A stretch of DNA of 64,000 nucleotides from an uncultured Rubripirellula sp. (GTDB lineage: Bacteria; Planctomycetota; Planctomycetia; Pirellulales; Pirellulaceae). The notes below the pieces were generated by a model that had not been told where the DNA came from, searched no databases, and worked only from the letters and a program-made list of their open reading frames with translations. The stretch covers positions 180,039 to 244,038 of the forward strand of contig CALJHC010000026.1 of the NCBI GenBank assembly GCA_938075415.1, written 5' to 3'. Of the stretch, positions 1-64,000 are shown piece after piece (the stretch's first letter is position 1; every line of letters begins with the position of its first letter). A program made the translations under genes and the position numbers.

Positions 1-3000
1 TCTTCTAGGCTTGATTTTTCTCGTTGCACTACATCCTCGGGGGCGCGAGCAACAAAGTTTTCGTTGCTGAGTTTTTGCTCTTTGCCACCAATCTGTTTCG
101 CGATCTGACCCAGTAACTTCTCAAGACGCGCAAGTTCCGCTTTCACGTCAATGAATTTCTCGAGATCAACGTGAACTTCGATTTCCATTGCAGGGATTCC
201 CAGCGGGGCATCCGTCTCGAAGGCCTCGGCTTGGGGTCCCAAGGTGGTGACTTCCGCTTGCGCGAGTCCCAAGAAGTAGGCTTTCATGGGTTCGAGCAAT
301 TTCTTGGATGATTCCGTGCAACGAATCGCTACGGGTACAGTTTCTCGGGGTGCGATATTTTGGCTGGCGCGAATACGACGTATTGCACCGACCACTTCCT
401 GAAACTCGGCAAACTGGCGTTCGATACCTTCATCGAAGTGTGACTGATCAGCTGTTGGCCAAGGAGCTCGCATCGCAAATGTGGACGCCTCTTGGGGTGC
501 GGGAAGTCCGCGTTGGGGGGCCACCAAGTTCAAGTGTTCCCAAATCACTTCGGTCACAAATGGCATGGTCGGGTGCAGAAGTTTCAAGAGGGTGTCGAGA
601 CCATGAGCCATGACTGATTGTGTCGTCGCTCGTTGGGCTGGGTCCGCCAAACGGGGTTTGGCAATCTCTAAGTAGAAGCTGCAAAACTCATCCCAGGCAA
701 AGTCGTATAGCAGGCGTGAGGATTCCGCAAAACGGTATTGCTGCAATCCCTCACTCACTTGGCGCGTGATCGTTGCAAGTCGGCTCAAGAGCCAGCGGTC
801 CTCAACGGGCAGAGATTCGAGGTTGATCGCTTGTGGTTCGTATCCGTCCATGTTCATCATGGCGAAGCGTGCAGCGTTCCAAAGCTTGTTGACAAAATTC
901 CGCGCCGTTTCAAATCGTTCGCTGACGACGGCGCCCTTGGGCAACGCCTTGTCCACATCGCTCTCAGCCCATTGTGTGGAGAATGCTTGCTTGCATCCTG
1001 GACAGTCAATGGTGGGTTGCGAACGATTTTTCTTCGTCTGATCGATCAATTTTTCGCAGTGCGGGCACTCGTATTGAACGGGCATGCGAACATCCTGCGT
1101 GTCGGTTGAGAGACGCGCAAGGCCGAAACGTAATGCATCAGGCCCAAATTTATCGATCACATCAATCGGATCAACACCGTTGCCCTTGCTCTTGCTCATC
1201 GTCTCACCCTGACCGTCCAAGATCTTTGGATGGATGAAGACTTCGCGAAATGGAATTTTGCCAACGTTGTTTAGGCCCATCAGCACCATTCTCGCGACCC
1301 ATAAGGTGATGATATCCCGAGAGGTGATCAGTGTGCTGGTGGGGTAAAAGTAATCAAGTTCTTGTGTCTTTTCTGGCCAGCCCAGTGTGCTGTGCGGCCA
1401 AAGTGCTGAGGAAAACCATGTGTCCAAGACATCCGGGTCTCGCGTCAATCCAAGTGACTCGAGGCTGGATTCTCGTTCATCACCCTCCTGCCTAAGGCAG
1501 ACGAAGATTCCTTGGGATCCATCGTCAAACTGATCGATTCGATAGCTGATCGCTTCCGGTGATTGAGCAATCATTGAATCAAGTTGGCTGGCAATTTCGG
1601 TGACGTTTGTTTGATTTAAGCCTGTGAGTGACCAAACAGGAATTCGATGTCCCCACCAGAGTTGCCGACTCACTGGCCAGTCACGTTTTTCACTCAACCA
1701 GTCCAAGTAGCCTTTTCGATAACGTTCTGGATAGATTTGTACGCTTTGATCGGTAACGGCATCCATGGCGGATTGGGCGAGTTCGTCCATGGCAACGAAC
1801 CATTGATCTGCAAGGTAGGGTTCGATGGGTGTTTTACTGCGATCACTTAGTGGCAATTCAATTTCGCGATCTTCAACATCACCCAAAAGGTCAATCGCTT
1901 TGAGATCTGCGACCACACGTTTGCGAGCCTGCGGGATGGTGCAACCTTCATAGGGGCCACCCTCTTGATTGACGGTTCCATCAGGATTCAAGATGTTAAT
2001 CATCGGTAACCCGGCACGTTGCCCAACTTCATAATCGTTTGGATCGTGGGCAGGCGTGATTTTTACGCATCCACTACCCAGTTCGGGTTTCGCCCATTGG
2101 TCCGCAATTAATGGGATTTCACGATCGGTCAGTGGAAGTCGCAATCTACGCCCATCGAGTGCCATCTCCCGTAACTGAATCAACGAATCGAGCATGGTCT
2201 GGCGCCGTTGAATTAATTTTTCAAGTTGCTCCTCAATTTCTTTCCGTTCATTCTCACCGGATTCTTTCAGTCGATCCTTGAGTCCGTCCTCGATCGCATC
2301 GAGTGCACCCTTGGGGTCCGGGTGAACGGCGACTGCGGTGTCACCAAGCATGGTTTCGGGACGAGTGGTTGCAATCTCGACTCGCTCGGGTTCTCCGGGT
2401 TTCGGGTCAACAACCGGATAATAAAGGTGCCAGAAATGACCTTTCTTGGAGGTGTTTTTGACTTCATCATTGCTGACAGCGGTCTGCAGGAACGTGTCCC
2501 AATTGACCAGTCGCTTACCGCGATAGATTTGCTTTTTGGCAAACAAGTCAAAGAAGGTGGCGCGGACTGCCGCAGCACATTGGTCATCGAGTGTGAATCG
2601 GGTGCGTTCCCAGTCGCAACTGCAACCCATGCGTTTCAACTGGCCAAGAATGCGGGTTTCGTACTGCGCCTTCCATTTCCAGATGCGGTCGACCAGTCCC
2701 TCACGACCGATGTCATGTCGAGAGAGATTTTCTTGCTCCTTCAGGCGTCGCTCAACCACAGCTTGGGTGGCGATTCCGGCGTGATCAGTTCCCGGCATCC
2801 AAAGGGTTTCACGTCCCATCATTCGGTTCATGCGAACCATGATGTCTTGCAACGTATTATTCAGCCCGTGTCCAAGGTGAAGTGCCCCGGTAACGTTTGG
2901 GGGAGGGATCACCACGCAGTAGGGGTCACGATCCCGGTTGACCTCAGCGTGACCACACTGATTGTCATCCCATGCTTGAGAAATTCGAGTGGCTTCGGCG

Positions 3001-3033
3001 GCATGATCAAATCGATCCGGCAATTGATTCATC
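1..3033 (-). CDS. valS: valyl-tRNA synthetase, partial (C-terminal end runs off the window start)
   Basis: Minus-strand translation starting at the ATG whose complement is at 3031-3033 gives a class-I aaRS. It has the PPNVTGALHLGH (HIGH-type) motif, the ETMSKSKGN (KMSKS) motif, and the ValRS-type C-terminal coiled-coil tail (KLSNENFVARAPEDVV). The + strand ORFs in the track between 308 and 3050 are antisense artefacts. Confidence 0.9.
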
Positions 3034-3100
3034 GGTATCAGATTATGTAGAAGAGGGTGTTGAGGGGGAAGGTGGACGGCGGAGATGATTTGGAGAAGAA

Positions 3101-4693
3101 TCATCCACCGAGTGGCATTTCCTCTTTGTGAAGCTTGTACTCGACGGCATCAACTAATGCTCGCCAGCTCGCGCTGATGATGTTTTCGCTGACTCCGATG
3201 GTGCCCCAAGATTCTTCTTGGTCACCGCTTTCAATATTGACTCGAATTGAGGCGGCGGTGCCGGCACCTGAATCCACGACACGAACCTTGTAGTCCAGTA
3301 AACGCATCTCGGCTAGGCATGGGTAGGTGTCGGCTAGTGCTTTTCGAAGTGCGGCATCGAGGGCATTGACCGGTCCCTGGCCTTCGGCCGCATCAAACCA
3401 CAGTGTCTCACCCACTTTTAATTTGATGATTGCCTCAGCGAATTCATTTTGTTTGGCGGGGTCACGATCACCAGAAACAATTCGGTACTTGATTGTTTCG
3501 AAGTGGGGCTGGAAGGTTCCAGCGATTCGTTTGACCAGCAAATCGAACGAAGCTCCGGCATTTTCGAACTGGTATCCTTGGTTTTCCAGCGTCACCACCT
3601 CCGCCAAGATCTTGTCCATTAACTCGCGGTCATCCTGCAGATTGTGTTTGGTGGCCAACGCGACGATGTTGCTACGGCCAGACAATTCGCTAACCAGAAT
3701 TCGGCGTTCGTTACCCACCAGAGACGGGTCAATATGTTCGTAGGTCTTCGCCGCCTTGTTAATAGCGTGAACGTGCATGCCACCTTTGTGAGCGAATGCG
3801 CTTTGACCCACAAACGGTTGGCCATTTTGCCACTGCAGATTGGCTGTTTCGTAGACGTACCGGCTGAGTTCCGTGAGCGGTGTCAGGGCTCTGCCTTGCA
3901 GGACATCAAACCCTTTCTTTTTCAGGCCAAGGTTTGCGATGACTGAAATCAAATCAGCATTGCCGCATCGTTCACCAATCCCATTGATTGTGCCTTGTAC
4001 TTGCAAGACACCGGCATCGACTGCCGCAAGTGAGTTTGCTACTGCCATCGAGCCGTCGTTGTGTGTGTGGATTCCAAATTCAACCTTGCAATCCTTGAGT
4101 GCTTCCTTCGCCGCGGTAGTGACCTCCGCTACTCGCTCGGGAAGAGCCCCGCCATTGGTGTCACACAACACCAGCCATTTGGCACCACCGCTTGCGGCAG
4201 CCTTCAGCGTATCGATGGCATATTGTGGATTGGCGGTGTACCCGTCAAAAAAATGTTCCGCATCATAAATCAGTTCGGAGTGGCCGCTCAGGAACTCCGC
4301 ACTTTCCCCAATCATTTGGAGATTTTCTTCGAGGGAAACTCTCAGGACTTCGGTCGCATGATAATCCCACGTCTTGCCCACAAGCGTTATGCATGGTGTT
4401 CGTGCTGCAACCAATGCCTGCATTCCTGGATCGTCTTTGGCGTCCATTGATTTACGCCGAGTCATTCCAAAGGCGCAGACCTTTGTGTGACCAAGATCTC
4501 GTTCTCGAATTTGTTCAAAGAATGAGACATCTTTTTCGTTCGACAACGGATAGCCGCCCTCGATGAAATCGATTCCTGTTTCCGCGAGTCGCGATGCAAT
4601 GTTGAGTTTGTCTTGCAGGGAAAAACTGACCCCCTCGCCCTGCGAGCCGTCACGGAGCGTGGTGTCGTAGATGAGGATGGGTTGATTGGTCAT
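3101..4693 (-). CDS. cimA: (R)-citramalate synthase / 2-isopropylmalate synthase family protein (CimA-like short form with LeuA-type C-terminal regulatory domain)
   Basis: 530-aa ORF. The N-terminus IYDTTLRDGSQGEGVSF...IEGGYPLSNEKD matches the DRE-TIM HMGL-like fold of LeuA/CimA. It is closer to the CimA signature (YDTTLRDG-SQ-E, EGGWPGSNPKD) than to LeuA (DTTLRDGEQ). HxH metal site HTHNDGSMAVANS is present. Family call confident; cimA vs leuA is less certain. Confidence 0.75.
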   Translation of the reverse strand: MTNQPILIYDTTLRDGSQGEGVSFSLQDKLNIASRLAETGIDFIEGGYPLSNEKDVSFFEQIRERDLGHTKVCAFGMTRRKSMDAKDDPGMQALVAARTPCITLVGKTWDYHATEVLRVSLEENLQMIGESAEFLSGHSELIYDAEHFFDGYTANPQYAIDTLKAAASGGAKWLVLCDTNGGALPERVAEVTTAAKEALKDCKVEFGIHTHNDGSMAVANSLAAVDAGVLQVQGTINGIGERCGNADLISVIANLGLKKKGFDVLQGRALTPLTELSRYVYETANLQWQNGQPFVGQSAFAHKGGMHVHAINKAAKTYEHIDPSLVGNERRILVSELSGRSNIVALATKHNLQDDRELMDKILAEVVTLENQGYQFENAGASFDLLVKRIAGTFQPHFETIKYRIVSGDRDPAKQNEFAEAIIKLKVGETLWFDAAEGQGPVNALDAALRKALADTYPCLAEMRLLDYKVRVVDSGAGTAASIRVNIESGDQEESWGTIGVSENIISASWRALVDAVEYKLHKEEMPLGG

Positions 4694-4831
4694 CTTTTCG
4701 AACTAGTTCGAGTGAAGCATCATGATCCTGTCATTGAGGTCGCCATCATTCGGAGAGCCTTCAATGTCACAACGAAGTCAACGTAATTTTGGCCAGGATC
4801 GTAAAGGTGGAAACGGATTAGGTATGGAAAC

Positions 4832-4865
4832 AAAAAAACCCCCGAACCATGTTAGGCCTCGGGGG
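4832..4865 (-). terminator. Intrinsic-terminator-like hairpin plus U7 on the minus strand, lying inside the 5' leader of the cimA-like gene (possible attenuator)
   Basis: The + strand reads aaaaaaa-CCCCCGA-accatgttaggcc-TCGGGGG. On the minus strand this is a 7-bp GC-rich stem followed directly by UUUUUUU. It lies about 140 nt upstream of the cimA-like start codon. No minus-strand gene lies upstream that it could terminate. Confidence 0.5.
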
Positions 4866-5568
4866 TGAATGGAAGCTTTAAGTCCCGAAATGATTTCAAC
4901 GGGATGGTCATTCCCGCGAATTGCTCTCACCCGTCTCAGCCATTGTTAATCGGGCGGATGCTGGTGTGAATGATCATTTTAATCATCGGGTCGGCCATGT
5001 GAATTTTTTCTCACTTTTCGTATCGCATTAGGATGACTGCATCGTCTCATGCTGTCAATCGCGAGTTGAGTTCTCCTGACATGTCGGTTACGGGCCGATT
5101 CTGAATCATTCGGCTCACTCGGGATGGTTGTCTCATGAGGAACCGTGTTTCAGTACTTGGCGTGGATCGGTCCGGTTTTTCACCGATGGGGTCATCCGAG
5201 CGAGGAGTGGTTCTTGCGAGTCCTTCTCAGTCAATCCCTCTGTCCGCTCGGTGATTCTTGAGCTTTGATGCGGGATCTCTTGTTCAGGGAATCGATGGCC
5301 TCTTGTTCAGATCGACTTGATTCAGCCCACTCGCCAGTGCGTCAAACTTGAATTTATCAGTGCGGCAAAATTAAATTCATCGCGACAATCGTTACAGACT
5401 GGTCAGGTAAAGGGTGGGCGTTGATTTTTCGCAACGAATCACGTTGCCTTTTTACAACAGATAAGGCAGCGGCGTGGTAGTGTTGCCAGGTCAAAGTCTC
5501 TTTAATCGGAAACCTTTCGCTAGCCGCATGTCTTTGTCTCGCGGTGCGGAAAGCAATCAGCGTGTCTT

Positions 5569-8403
5569 ATGTCTGCAATATCCCCATCGCACCAAAGATC
5601 CCGGTCAGTCAACCGCTTGCGGGCGCTGAGTAGCATCGTTGTTGTTTTGATCGCGTGTATATGTGGAGTAGGTTGTAATCAACTGCGATTGCCCGCAATT
5701 GATTCCACCGGCGCCGGGCTCTTTGCTCCGAAGCCCTACACAACAACTCTTGCCGTTCCTGGTTTCGGTAGCGATTCATGCGGTATCAAGAGTCATTTTA
5801 AGAATCATTTTGCAGGTCTTGGGTTTGGTGATGGTGATTGCAAATTTCCATCGCCGGTATTTAAGGAACCTGATGCACCCCTGCCATGTCCGCCAGAGGA
5901 GAACGCTCTCGCTGCTGCGCCGACCACTCTCGTTGCGACTGATTTGGCTGACGCGTCTTGTCAGGATGGACCACCCGCGGTGCTTTATGGAGATCAGTGC
6001 ATTCATCAAGGCTGCCGATTGCCCAGTCGGGGCAATCGCGGTTGCATCCTACTTACCCCGAGCAAGATCGTCGCTCCGGTGGGCGGTGAGGTTGTCTTGT
6101 TGTCCGGAATCTGCGGCACTGACGGCTATCTGCAAATGAACGAGAAGCTGGAGTGGATGCTGACACCAGACAGTGTGGGAACTTTTATCGAAGTAGGAGA
6201 TGATTCTCCCGGGATGCTCACTAAGCTTGTCGGATCAAAAGACCGGCCGGGTAAGGAAGATCCTTCCTATGCCATCGGAATGACCAGTACAAAACGAATG
6301 TTGATCACGCGAGGGAATCATGACACGCGCGATGATGTCCAGCTTGAAAAAGGGCAAACCTGGATCACGTTGAGCAGCCCGAGTGAGGGAACGAGCCACG
6401 TGACGGTTCTTGCTCCGGAAAGTGAGTGCTGGGATCAGAGAAAAGCGACGGCTACGATCTATTGGGTTGATGCAAGGTGGCAATTCCCCAATGCTCAGCT
6501 TGTCAAAGAGGGACAGGCTGTTGTTCTCTCCACGCGTGTCACGCGTTCGGAGGGCGGTTTGCCAGCTAGAGGATGGACGGTGCGATACGAGGTCTTGCAG
6601 CCTGAGTTAGCCTCATTTGCGGGAACTGATGACGCAACCGTTACGGAGGTAGAGGTTGATTCATCCGGGAATGCGGCAGTGCAATTGGTTCCAAAGTCGG
6701 GAACCAGCGGCGTTGCGCCCGTTTCCATTCAAATCATCCGTCCGGGTGGAATGAGTGACAATATTCCGAGTGTCACTCTGGGGCGAGGTCAGACTTTTGT
6801 CACATGGAGCGCGCCGCAATTAAAGTTGAGGGCAGGTGCACCACCGATTGCAACCTTTGATTCGCCATTTCAAGCCATTGCCAACTTGGCCAATCCTGGT
6901 GACCAGCCAGCTCGAAACGTCAGGGTCGATGTTCAATTACCACCCGGGACAAGGGTTGTTGGGAGTGATGCCTTCGCAAGGGTTCTTCCCAATGCGGTGA
7001 CCTGGGATATCGGTACTTTGCCCGCGCAGCAGCAGTTGGATTTATTTGTGGATGTCGTGGCTCAATCACCAGTTGATCTGGTTTTCCAGGCGCGTGGTGA
7101 CGGACTGGTGACCGAGGAAAAGCTTCGCATCGATGTCTTTCGACCAGCACTCTCGGTGCGTGTGCAACCGGTTCAGCAGCGAGTGGAGTCGGGTCAGCCG
7201 GTGAAGTTTGACATCGACGTGATCAACACGGGTGATCGTCCACTCCGGAATGTTCAGTTACTAGCTTCGGGAGATTCGGGGGTAATCCATCGAAGTGGGA
7301 ATGCTGCGGTGACCAATACGAAAGCCAATGGACCACTTCAGCCCGGTGAAACATGGGCTGCGCAAGTGGAGTTTATTCCGGTTCAGGCCGGGCAACGCTG
7401 TTTAAACGTTCAAGCATCCGCTGATGGCGGGCAGAGGGTAGCACAGGAAAGCTGCGTGACGGTGATCAATCCGGTTCCGCGAGCGCCTGATTTATCCATC
7501 AAGTTAGAGGGGCCGAGAGAAAGGGTCATGGGTCAGGATGCTCTGATTCGGGCAACCTTGGTCAACCAAGGGAATGTGGTGGCTAGTCAGGTTCGCGTGG
7601 TGATGTCATTTCCTGATCAATTGCAATTGAAGCAAGCGACGCAGGGTGCCGACCAATCCTTGTTGCAGCAGCGGCAGGTCGCTTGGAATCTTTTGCGAGT
7701 TGATCCCGGGAAAGAGGTGGTTTTCGAAGGGCAGTTTGAAGCTGCGTTTCCAGTTAATCAAGCTGAGGTGACGTTGCAAGTGCTTACGGATACCGGAGCA
7801 GTGTCTGAGGATTCGTTAGCTGTAACGATCTTGCCGCAGTCCGGTGGCGGAACTCGTCCGAGTGGTGGAAATCTGAACGGTTCTGGAACTGAGGCGAGCG
7901 GGTCATCGGCGGATCTAGCTGTCCCACTGCAAGGCGATCCTACCGCGTCTGTCAATGATCCTGCCGCGTCTGTCAATGATCCTGCCGAGCCAAATGATCC
8001 TGTCCTTCCCGTCGAGCAAGCTTCCAGATCAGGGGACTTGAAGGTCTCTCTGTTGGGACGGGATAATCCGGCAAGTGTCGAAAGTCTGATTCGTTATCAG
8101 TTGCGGATTGTCAACGATTCCAACGAACGCGATGGGGATCTTGCTATTGAATTCAAGCTTCCTTCCGGCGTCAGATTGGAGAGGGTGAGCCGTTCGACCA
8201 ATCCGGATGTGGGTGAGTTTCAGATTGGTCCCGGTGCGGTGGCGATTGCCCGTGTTCCGTCAATCGAACCAGGAGAAAAAATTGACTACGAGTTGGTGAT
8301 GGTTAGCAACCAACCGCAAACTTTTGAACTCAAAGTCGAGGTGAGAAGTGTTCGCGTGAGACAGGGTGTTGTCAAAACAGTCGAAACCACTGTTGTGCCT
8401 TAG
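5569..8403 (+). CDS. Large secreted/lipoprotein-like repeat protein with multiple DUF11-type (conserved repeat domain) beta-sandwich repeats
   Basis: 944-aa ORF. N-terminal hydrophobic segment with LIACICGVGC (lipobox-like). Repeated about 100-aa modules with recurring V-x-N-x-G motifs (TLVNQGNV, IVNDSNERDG, DVINTGDRPL) typical of DUF11 repeats. An in-frame 21-bp tandem repeat lies at 7928-7990. Confidence 0.7.
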   Translation: MSAISPSHQRSRSVNRLRALSSIVVVLIACICGVGCNQLRLPAIDSTGAGLFAPKPYTTTLAVPGFGSDSCGIKSHFKNHFAGLGFGDGDCKFPSPVFKEPDAPLPCPPEENALAAAPTTLVATDLADASCQDGPPAVLYGDQCIHQGCRLPSRGNRGCILLTPSKIVAPVGGEVVLLSGICGTDGYLQMNEKLEWMLTPDSVGTFIEVGDDSPGMLTKLVGSKDRPGKEDPSYAIGMTSTKRMLITRGNHDTRDDVQLEKGQTWITLSSPSEGTSHVTVLAPESECWDQRKATATIYWVDARWQFPNAQLVKEGQAVVLSTRVTRSEGGLPARGWTVRYEVLQPELASFAGTDDATVTEVEVDSSGNAAVQLVPKSGTSGVAPVSIQIIRPGGMSDNIPSVTLGRGQTFVTWSAPQLKLRAGAPPIATFDSPFQAIANLANPGDQPARNVRVDVQLPPGTRVVGSDAFARVLPNAVTWDIGTLPAQQQLDLFVDVVAQSPVDLVFQARGDGLVTEEKLRIDVFRPALSVRVQPVQQRVESGQPVKFDIDVINTGDRPLRNVQLLASGDSGVIHRSGNAAVTNTKANGPLQPGETWAAQVEFIPVQAGQRCLNVQASADGGQRVAQESCVTVINPVPRAPDLSIKLEGPRERVMGQDALIRATLVNQGNVVASQVRVVMSFPDQLQLKQATQGADQSLLQQRQVAWNLLRVDPGKEVVFEGQFEAAFPVNQAEVTLQVLTDTGAVSEDSLAVTILPQSGGGTRPSGGNLNGSGTEASGSSADLAVPLQGDPTASVNDPAASVNDPAEPNDPVLPVEQASRSGDLKVSLLGRDNPASVESLIRYQLRIVNDSNERDGDLAIEFKLPSGVRLERVSRSTNPDVGEFQIGPGAVAIARVPSIEPGEKIDYELVMVSNQPQTFELKVEVRSVRVRQGVVKTVETTVVP

Positions 8404-16264: not shown

Positions 16265-16914
16265 CTTTTTTCAACTCGGGTCGGGCAATTGCTTGATTCG
16301 GGTTTTTTTATGCCATGATTTTTTATGGGTCGTATCCAATCTCTTTGGATTCAACGCGTGCAATCCGCCCTTTGCCACTCTGGTTTGCTTTGTTCATGCT
16401 GACAGTGAACTCATTTTGACACGGTGAGATGCTCTGACCCATCTGGCTAACGTCATTGTCCGATGGCATCCTCCGGATCCGATGGCGTGAGTGCATCGAT
16501 CTAGCCAGTATGGAATATCCCGAGGTTCACCGTATGGTGGCCGGCAACGACGAGCAGGTTTCATTGATGAATTTATTTCATGCGTGAGGTCAACTGATCA
16601 TCGTTGGCTGCTGCCGATTCAAATGCGATGAAGGTTCGGGCAAGGGGGATTGGTCGGCTAATTTGCCGAGCCTTTGGTTGCGGCAGCGAGCTTTTTTGGG
16701 GCTTTTGTGAAGTTGAAATTGAGTTGCGTTGATCGGGCTTGCCATCCTCAAGGGTCCAAAAGGCTTGGCTGGTTATTTTGTGAAAAGTGAATCCCTCACC
16801 GCTTTTTCAGGCGATCAAGATTCGGCCAGTGGGAGGTCGCATCTCGAAGGTGTTTTCCGGGTCGGAGATTGATTGTGGTTTCCTAGAGCTTGGTCTGGAC
16901 CTCTAGGTTTTTTC

Positions 16915-16965
16915 CATAAAAAAACCGGTCATCAGGCTCAATGAGTCTGATGGCCGGTCATGTTT
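16915..16965 (-). terminator. Strong hairpin (11-bp stem) followed by U8 on the minus strand; also a T4 run on the plus side (possibly bidirectional)
   Basis: The + strand reads aaaaaaaa-CCGGTCATCAG-gctcaatgagt-CTGATGGCCGG-tcatgtttt. The stem has a single G-U. It lies about 520 nt downstream of the DUF1080 gene end (17485) on the minus strand. Confidence 0.6.
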
Positions 16966-61715: not shown

Positions 61716-61789
61716 GGGCGTGTAGCTCAGTTGGTTAGAGCGCGTCGCTGATAACGACGAGGTCCCAGATTCGAGTTCTGGCACGCCCA
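61716..61789 (+). tRNA. tRNA-Ile (anticodon GAT)
   Basis: GGGCGTG acceptor pairing with CACGCCC, discriminator A. Anticodon arm CGTCG-CTGATAA-CGACG. T loop AGATTCGAGTTCT. 74 nt, CCA not encoded. The position is the standard rRNA spacer-type tRNA-Ile. Confidence 0.9.
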
Positions 61790-61862
61790 CTTAAGTTTGG
61801 TTAGTGAAAATTGAATTTGGACATTGCCAAGTCGGCTTTCACATGCCAAGTTTAAGGCTTCT

Positions 61863-61935
61863 GGGGGTGTAGCTCAGTTGGGAGAGCATCTGCTTTGCAA
61901 GCAGAGGGTCGTCGGTTCAAGTCCGTCCACCTCCA
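61863..61935 (+). tRNA. tRNA-Ala (anticodon TGC)
   Basis: Acceptor GGGGGTG/CACCTCC containing the G3-U70 wobble pair that is the tRNA-Ala identity element. Anticodon arm TCTGC-TTTGCAA-GCAGA. T loop GGTTCAAGTCC. One U-U mismatch in the T stem in my fold. Confidence 0.9.
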
Positions 61936-62679
61936 CTTGATTGATGAAAAGGTTACCTAAAGCGTTGGATCGCTATTGTCTGGCGGCCTTCCTAGTTTTT
62001 CAAGCAAGCTAATTGGTCTCTGATGGATTTCGAGCGTTGCTCGGCTTGATCGAGGCGTTAGATGCTTTCCGATCGCTTCGGAAAGAAGTGTTGAGTTTTT
62101 TCGTCGAATAACGTTTTGCCTCCTTGCAAGGATGTGATTCAGATGCGAAAACCTCCGCACAGTTGGGGCAAGAAGCCGCTTCTCAAGTTTCTGAGAAAAA
62201 AGCTTCTAACTCCGCTTGACGAGAGAAAACCTCACGGTTATCTTTCGCCCCTCACTCGGGAGTAACCGAGTTGGCCCTCAAGGAGGGTCTGCTCGGCTGC
62301 TCTCCAGCAGCGTCCCTTGAGTCATGTCCACAGTGGCATTTCAAGGCTTTGATCTTTGACAATTTGGTTGTTTGGTAGTTGGCATCTGAAAAGAAAGCAG
62401 TTGCTTGTCAACAGGCGTAAGCTTGTTGGTAGGTCTGCTAACAATTTCAAAGAGCGTTGCTGTAGGGTTGCCTTTCGAGGTTGCCTGAACAGCAATTGAA
62501 TTCTGAATAGGATTCTGTGCAAGTTAATGTCGACAGGGTGGTTCACTCGTGTTCCACCGAGAAGACATTAGCTACCATGTGATATCGTTAGATAGTAGAA
62601 AATCGACGAAATAACGTTCGGATCTGATTCCGGCAAAGGTTCTCCTTTGTTGAATGAAAGACTCCGAGTTCGGGATTTC

Positions 62680-64000
<1,321 letters not shown>

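Follow-up and report, generated by a model that had tools for sequence, protein, structure and literature searches.

Expression of cimA, the citramalate synthase gene of an uncultured Rubripirellula sp., is probably controlled by a leader-peptide transcription attenuator that responds to isoleucine (Ile) by sensing Ile-tRNA, a reading to which we give a probability of roughly 0.78. Citramalate synthase opens the pyruvate route to isoleucine and commits pyruvate to this amino acid, so that Ile codons are the expected sensor. The element lies on the minus strand of the window, i.e., the whole 64,000-nucleotide stretch that was analysed (contig CALJHC010000026.1, positions 180,039 to 244,038), in the 5′ leader of cimA. 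Computational analysis of this leader identified an open reading frame (ORF) with codons for the amino acid of the pathway, an intrinsic terminator ahead of the gene, an antiterminator (pairing 2:3), an anti-antiterminator (pairing 1:2), and a stop codon so placed that a ribosome resting there would mask segment 2. The attenuator probably also controls valS, the gene that follows cimA. The gene and the terminator are placed as follows:

3101-4693, minus strand: cimA, citramalate synthase, the gene proposed to be regulated (TIGR00977, 660 bits against a cut-off of 450).
4832-4866, minus strand: intrinsic terminator (segments 3:4), consisting of hairpin 4866-4838 and U7 at 4838-4832, from folding and a hairpin scan.

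A reading made from the sequence only had noted a 7-bp G/C stem followed by U7 about 140 nt upstream of the cimA start, and had proposed that this premature terminator may serve as an attenuator of a branched-chain amino-acid gene; our analysis supports both points. The stem pairs CCCCCGA (4865-4859) with UCGGGGG (4845-4839), with U7 (4838-4832) directly 3′ of it. On folding it extends to 11 pairs around a 6-nt loop, with A4866-U4838 at the base, G4858·U4846 further up, and C4856-G4847 and C4855-G4848 at the top. The minimum free energy (MFE) of the hairpin is -19.6 kcal/mol, whereas dinucleotide shuffles have a mean of -9.8±2.3 (z = -4.3); none of the 200 folded as well. From the end of the U-tract to the cimA ATG (4693) the distance is 139 nt. 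Such sites are rare: a scan of both strands of the window (128 kb) for a hairpin of -15 kcal/mol or lower with a run of six or more T behind it returned five, and the cimA site is the sole one in a 5′ leader. The other four coincide with a tRNA-Ser itself or lie where a tRNA or a gene ends, and include the tRNA-Ser region 16266-16310 and minus-strand sites at 16924 and 53224. The rough chance of finding a site of this strength on the minus strand of an 875-nt intergenic stretch is ~0.03. A standard terminator scan missed the cimA-leader site, because its loops were limited to 3-8 nt. Two more ordinary roles for the hairpin were rejected: it does not terminate an upstream minus-strand gene, since there is no such gene upstream, and it is not a bidirectional terminator for the divergent gene, which starts at 5569 on the plus strand and heads away from it. 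The earlier statement that no minus-strand gene lies upstream thus stands for ordinary genes and fails for a 20-codon ORF (4998-4936), which ends 69 nt before the hairpin.

This ORF is the candidate sensor of the attenuator:

4936-4998, minus strand: leader ORF of 20 codons plus stop, encoding MADPMIKMIIHTSIRPINNG (ATG 4998-4996, TGA 4938-4936), from the ORF list.
4969-4983, minus strand: candidate regulatory Ile codons 6 (AUU 4983-4981), 9 (AUC 4974-4972) and 10 (AUU 4971-4969), from the sequence and the clade alignment.
4948-4959, minus strand: candidate regulatory Ile codons 14 (AUC 4959-4957) and 17 (AUU 4950-4948), in or beside segment 1.

The sequence-only reading had seen no obvious Ile/Leu-rich leader peptide upstream of cimA, and was mistaken in this: five of the 20 codons of MADPMIKMIIHTSIRPINNG are Ile (25%, compared to 5.6% in CimA), and similar ORFs are present in dozens of planctomycete cimA loci. 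Further in-frame ATGs are present at 4986 and 4977. When the window leader was shuffled with its dinucleotides preserved, 3.3% of the shuffles contained an ORF that starts with ATG, is 8-40 codons long and has five or more Ile (p = 0.033). Taken alone, the Ile enrichment of the window ORF is therefore suggestive rather than decisive, and for this reason the leader was compared with those of other loci.

The RNA between the start of the leader ORF and the terminator contains the strands for two further pairings:

4951-4961, minus strand: segment 1, the anti-antiterminator strand GCAUCCGCCCG, within the Ser13-Ile14-Arg15-Pro16 codons; predicted to pair with 4933-4923.
4923-4941, minus strand: segment 2, the switch strand GGCUGAGACGGGUGAGAGC, which includes UGA 4938-4936; predicted to pair with segment 1 or with the terminator 5′ arm.
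4855-4876, minus strand: segment 3, the antiterminator 3′ strand, composed of GCUU, UCACCC and the terminator 5′ arm ACCCCCGAGGCC, from the duplex and the truncated folds.
4897-4920, minus strand: spacer hairpin P (UUCGCGGGA...UCCCGUUGAA), between segments 2 and 3, from folding.

The free leader, at its MFE, folds with a 1:2 helix of 10 bp. A search for an antiterminator within 4866-5000 had been suggested, and the computed 2:3 duplex, 4941-4923 with 4876-4855 (-17.9 kcal/mol), provides one. No other stretch in the 160 nt upstream complements the terminator arm as well as segment 2, whose centre is 1.5 nt from the stop codon. The computed layout is that of a classical 1:2 / 2:3 / 3:4 attenuator, in which the three pairings are mutually exclusive. 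Since equilibrium folds do not by themselves show the switch, the leader was folded after truncation before the terminator 3′ arm, with the ribosome footprint masked. With the ribosomal A-site at Ile10 or Ile14, the full antiterminator is the MFE structure, and nucleotides 4866-4863 are paired with P = 0.86-1.0. With the A-site at Ile17 the antiterminator is shorter (GGCU is masked), and the bottom nucleotides are still paired at 0.99. With the ribosome at Gly20 or at the stop, nucleotides 4866-4864 are free (P ≤ 0.06); at the stop it covers 4941-4924, given an assumed footprint of 12 nt downstream.

We infer from these folds a kinetic competition between hairpins. Transcription would start near 5023, at TTGACA-N17-CATCCT, and a ribosome would translate the 20-codon leader (4998-4936) with its five Ile codons. 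Where Ile-tRNA is plentiful, the ribosome would reach the UGA at 4938-4936 and cover segment 2 (4941-4923); segment 3 would be left free, and the 3:4 hairpin (4866-4838) would form ahead of U7, with termination near 4832. Where Ile-tRNA is scarce, the ribosome would stall at Ile 9/10, 14 or 17 and cover segment 1 (4961-4951). Segment 2, now free, could then pair with 4876-4855 and sequester the 5′ arm of the terminator, including its bottom pairs, and the predicted physiological response is readthrough into cimA. With no ribosome on the leader, 1:2 and 3:4 would both form, and transcription would again terminate.

Leaders of other cimA genes were collected by protein-seeded CimA scans, which gave at least 80 genome loci and at least 80 metagenome loci among the matches listed (individual loci are denoted by L numbers). 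A strong terminator is located upstream of cimA in ~60 loci, nearly all from Planctomycetota; conversely, nearly all Planctomycetota loci sampled have such a terminator, 17-260 nt before the gene. The groups that carry it are Pirellulales, Gimesia and other Planctomycetales, some Gemmatales, and Phycisphaerae/Tepidisphaerales, and terminators are mostly absent from the cimA loci of Geobacter, Nitrospira and Acidobacteria. Most terminator loci also have an ORF with a run of Ile codons just upstream, despite unrelated leader sequences. Examples are VIIIP (L004), SSIIIIC (L009/L010), SSIVAIIAIIT (L023), ALIIIA (L035), NAIIAIAMRIT (L044), SAIMIIEIT (L049), EIIIP (L081/L082) and TITIIIG (L104). Of 30 terminator-bearing genome loci, 18 have, within 160 nt, an open frame in which a stretch of seven codons includes at least three Ile, compared to 4.8±1.8 in shuffled leaders (maximum 10, 200 shuffles), and the independent metagenome set displayed the same pattern. 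No other amino acid stands out as Ile does: runs of Leu and Val are mildly enriched, and the excess of Tyr runs (5 vs 0.25 in shuffles) is the shifted frame of ATTATT runs.

The position of the stop codon recurs as well. In each of 60 loci, the most Ile-rich ORF was picked by codon content alone, and the best complement to the terminator 5′ arm in the 160 nt upstream was found separately, by pairing energy alone. The complement fell within ±10 nt of the stop of the Ile-rich ORF in 46 of the 60 loci, with ~15% expected by chance (binomial p ≈ 2e-26), and in 35 of the 42 loci whose ORF has at least three Ile. Examples of such pairings are GGCAGGG-UAG-GCG with GCCCUGCC in L049 and CCGGCCG-UAA-GGGUU with AACCCUGAGGCCG in L023. 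In folds of other loci, a ribosome on the last Ile codon leaves the arm sequestered, while one that has reached the stop covers the complementary strand and largely frees the arm.

Three observations were made on individual groups in this survey. Two non-planctomycete cimA leaders, L080 (from a Desulfobacteraceae metagenome-assembled genome, MAG) and L156, are extremely Ile-rich (…SITIIIIMEATG… and MKSSIGIIIPIIIDIIGIRPGGVGG) and are followed by a strong terminator (AAATCCGTTATCAGG…); they either evolved this arrangement separately or have it in common with the planctomycete loci. Loci of the Gemmatales/Isosphaerales type (L016, L017, L026, L027, L091, L099 and L102) have a common peptide motif, A-Q-G/E-V-R, past the Ile/Val run; its cause is probably conservation at the RNA level (GCGCAGGGAGUGCG), not selection acting on the peptide. 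A Pirellulaceae MAG (L003) has no Ile-rich leader ORF before cimA, and carries the ~27-nt element CGTAACCGCAGCGCAGCGGAGGTTAGG twice, as a direct repeat, about 200-90 nt upstream of its terminator.

Among the matches listed there was no close relative of the window CimA besides that of N. rosea (82%). A pairwise leader alignment with N. rosea, the best GTDB relative, retained CAUUCACCCCCGAGGCC, the terminator 5′ arm, as the sole conserved part, and closer relatives were therefore needed to establish leader homology. The close clade analysed comprises N. rosea (L001), N. galeiformis (L170), Crateriforma conspicua (L171) and the marine MAGs L166-L169 and L172-L174. Its members have in common a terminator, CACCCCCGAGGCC, and a peptide core, II-(R)V-x-G-I-x-S-R (also II-x3/4-I-x-(S)R); the II pair is kept in all of them, with synonymous changes between ATT and ATC. 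The leader starts with ATG in the window and in L172, and with GTG in the other clade loci. A 1:2 helix, CCGCGUC/GACGCGG, formed around a small CGGC/GCCG hairpin, is present in eight relatives, where CCGCGUC is located directly 3′ of the AUU AUC pair, and RNAalifold independently recovers this helix and the terminator. The 2:3 duplexes of the clade have energies of -14.5 to -22 kcal/mol. A stretch, CUGACUGACAUUUCACCCCC, is also conserved in close relatives. In the window clade the spacer is 69-73 nt long with an inserted hairpin; this hairpin is found in most relatives with a sequence that varies by locus, most clearly in L166, L167, L169, L171 and L172 (z -2.2 to -4.0), and is no better than shuffles in four of nine loci, the window included (z -0.6 to +0.2).

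The clade comparison also points to a promoter for the leader:

5053-5058, minus strand: -35-like hexamer TTGACA of the putative leader promoter, conserved in the clade.
5030-5035, minus strand: putative -10-like element CATCCT, conserved in the same clade, with a 3/6 match to TATAAT.

This TTGACA-N17-CATCCT motif is located 60 nt upstream of the leader ATG, and would place the transcription start near 5023. TTGACA-N17-CATCCT, -TATCCT or -CATTCT is present in L001, L161/162, L163/164, L166-L170 and L172/173, and a looser form, TTGACA-N17-TATCTT, in L171. From TTGACA to the end of the U-tract the distance is 227-259 nt in the 10 loci measured. The start codon lies 54-64 nt past TTGACA in seven of nine distinct clade loci, the other two being L168 (87 nt) and L171 (74 nt). 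A sigma-70 scan missed CATCCT because it matches TATAAT at only 3/6 positions. The candidates which that scan did return (5003-4976 and 4970-4942) were rejected: they are inside the leader ORF, they are two where 2.1 were expected, and they are not conserved. The occurrence of GATTGACA-N17-CATCCT at a fixed distance from a terminator, with a -10 unlike TATAAT, may be a lead to the sigma-A consensus of Pirellulaceae.

Several observations weigh against an Ile-responsive attenuator in the window. The leader ORF is preceded by an A-rich stretch with no clear Shine-Dalgarno sequence, and most relatives would have to use GTG as start codon. Equilibrium folding favours the terminator in all ribosome states modelled, and the switch must therefore be kinetic, as in classical systems. 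With the ribosome at the stop, a weak extra hairpin of UUUCGGG (4890-4884) with CCCGAGG (4863-4857) is predicted, which takes up part of the 5′ arm; it was not found in the relatives. The window 1:2 strand is shifted by ~9 nt relative to those of the relatives. Because the clade helices show almost no variation, their covariation is weak (matched by 82 to 165 of 500 shuffles), and it was not used as main evidence. Finally, the three nearest lineages, with 87-89% CimA identity, have partly or wholly lost the element. L161/162 keep the promoter, the length and the terminator around a 43-codon ORF that lacks the Ile cluster; L163/164 have just a weak AU-rich hairpin and U7 ~40 nt past the promoter; and in L165 the terminator is absent. 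This shows that the element can be dispensed with and turns over quickly.

This decay, i.e., a missing Ile cluster in L161/162, a weak hairpin in L163/164 and nothing in L165, together with the shifted 1:2 register and the extra hairpin at 4890-4857, is what would be expected if the window element were a relic or a constitutive partial terminator, inherited, no longer responsive to Ile, and merely lowering cimA expression. We consider this unlikely, as the window keeps all parts: the ATG, five Ile codons and the in-frame stop in segment 2, and likewise the 10-bp 1:2 helix, the 2:3 duplex of -17.9 kcal/mol and the conserved promoter. The conserved promoter, the strong terminator and the constant promoter-to-terminator length would also suit a gene for a small RNA, or a dual function, in which the ~190-nt RNA (~5023 to 4832) and/or the peptide acts in trans, while attenuation would still be possible. 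The attenuator products rnTrpL and peTrpL of Sinorhizobium are precedents for action in trans (PMC6614838, PMC7298713). We rate this as quite unlikely: there is no evidence for a target, and what is conserved outside the clade is the attenuator logic, with no single-stranded seed sequence.

A metabolite riboswitch, a T-box or protein-mediated antitermination, some of which the sequence-only reading had also entertained, could explain a long structured leader with a hairpin P of varying sequence and a stretch conserved in close relatives. Nevertheless, scans against Rfam of 4500-5700 (E ≤ 10) and of the whole window (gathering threshold) gave no riboswitch or T-box match in the leader. The matches that did appear in the leader scan were rejected, namely weak ones to rdlD, a betaproteobacterial toxic sRNA and anti-hemB (E 2.6-5.4), which are look-alikes of a generic terminator hairpin, and one to an unrelated snoRNA. 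There is no aptamer-like conserved core across the phylum, and the leader is not conserved beyond close relatives. Ile codons and stop placement recur, which a ligand or protein sensor would not need; we regard this class as very unlikely. That the hairpin and T-run arose by chance and have no function is scarcely credible. Nothing speaks for it beyond the general possibility, and against it stand the z of -4.3, the rarity of such sites (one of 5 in 128 kb), and the conservation of position and sequence in relatives. These results suggest that leader-peptide attenuation by Ile is the best explanation of the element.

The surroundings of the leader bear on how far this control might extend. The window CimA is 100% identical to a protein of a Rhodopirellula sp. 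MAG. The intergenic region was described correctly as 875 bp (4694-5568) and divergent from the ORF at 5569-8403, and the DUF11 label given to that ORF goes with a DUF11-repeat score that only just attains the cut-off. On the other side of cimA lies the following gene:

1-3032, minus strand, continuing beyond the start of the window: valS, valyl-tRNA synthetase (ValRS), an open frame of 1032 codons.

The valS ATG, at 3032, is 68 nt past the cimA stop, and the terminator scan found no strong hairpin+T6 site in the gap. The order cimA-then-valS is kept in L161-L166, L170, L171, L173 and L174, where the downstream gene has the Pfam domains tRNA-synt_1 and Val_tRNA-synt_C. From the short gap, the lack of a strong terminator within it and the conserved order, the Ile attenuator may also govern the expression of ValRS, and the two genes are probably co-transcribed. 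A listed plus-strand ORF at 2226-3050 is antisense to valS and probably spurious. The far end of the window (61716-64000) contains tRNA-Ile(GAU), tRNA-Ala(UGC) and the 5′ 1.3 kb of a 23S rRNA gene; 16S rRNA was not detected in the 61.7 kb upstream of the 23S segment, and the rRNA operon appears to be split. Split rRNA operons have been reported for Planctomycetes.

The proposed mechanism is a textbook one, at which a specialist would be only mildly surprised; what is without a prior report that we found is the phylum and the gene, cimA. To our knowledge, very few cis-regulatory elements have been described in Planctomycetota, and the attenuator provides this phylum with a testable regulatory mechanism that ties cimA regulation to the charging of Ile-tRNA. 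Our literature search, which did not cover the 2010 survey of Lopatovskaya et al. (Mol Biol 44:128) where it may be mentioned, returned no report of leader-peptide attenuation of cimA or in planctomycetes. The likely Pirellulaceae promoter consensus, TTGACA-N17-CATCCT, and the set of intrinsic terminators are useful for annotation and genetic tools, and an Ile sensor that possibly co-regulates valS would connect Ile supply with the charging of Val-tRNA in a so far unexplored way. Because attenuation needs a ribosome close behind RNA polymerase, its recurrence across the phylum, Gemmataceae-type loci (L017, L026) included, would argue for coupled transcription and translation there. If true, these attenuators bear on the older debate over compartmentalised Gemmata cells; a 2014 PNAS paper on Gemmata obscuriglobus, which PMC6212462 cites, is said to bear on the claimed spatial separation of transcription and translation. 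In its most extended form, the proposal would be that the Ile-leader attenuator is ancient throughout Planctomycetota, sets valyl-tRNA synthetase levels in Pirellulaceae, and yields a ~190-nt RNA and/or a peptide that perhaps acts in trans. We hold this to be speculative and, as a whole, rather improbable; an ancient device of this kind may span Pirellulales, Planctomycetales, some Gemmatales and Phycisphaerae.

Classical attenuation is that of the trp, leu, his, thr and phe leaders of Proteobacteria. Among known systems, the leaders of E. coli ilvGMEDA (ilvL) and ilvBN (ivbL) resemble the cimA leader in having an ORF with codons for the end products, 1:2 / 2:3 / 3:4 pairings and an intrinsic terminator, and also in their logic, whereby segment 2 is masked once the ribosome has reached the stop codon, and segment 1 while the ribosome is stalled. 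They differ from it in phylum, and there is no similarity in sequence or to an Rfam model. The regulated gene here is cimA (perhaps with valS) rather than ilv or leu genes, and the sensor is mainly Ile, whereas that of ilvL and ivbL is mixed Ile/Val/Leu. In addition, most of the planctomycete versions embed the stop in the antiterminator strand, ~20-35 nt from the terminator, a distance that is longer (69-73 nt) in the window clade. Outside Proteobacteria, the ilvB uORF of Corynebacterium (the ilvB-II motif, PMC10272879; see also uORFC-75-1, PMC11109978) is likewise an upstream ORF with branched-chain codons, followed by a P2 terminator and a P1 antiterminator, and was likewise found by comparative genomics; it belongs to Actinobacteria, precedes ilvB, contains mixed Ile/Leu/Val codons and is unrelated in sequence. 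The leucine-rich attenuator peptide of the Staphylococcus aureus ilv-leu operon is another non-proteobacterial leader-peptide attenuator of branched-chain genes, but it senses Leu, works with CodY and is unrelated in sequence (PMC5794164). The T-box of Firmicutes, which controls ilv, leu and aminoacyl-tRNA synthetase genes, also reads tRNA charging through a switch between terminator and antiterminator. It binds the tRNA directly, via a specifier loop and the T-box sequence, whereas the cimA leader of the window has a translatable Ile-rich ORF instead.

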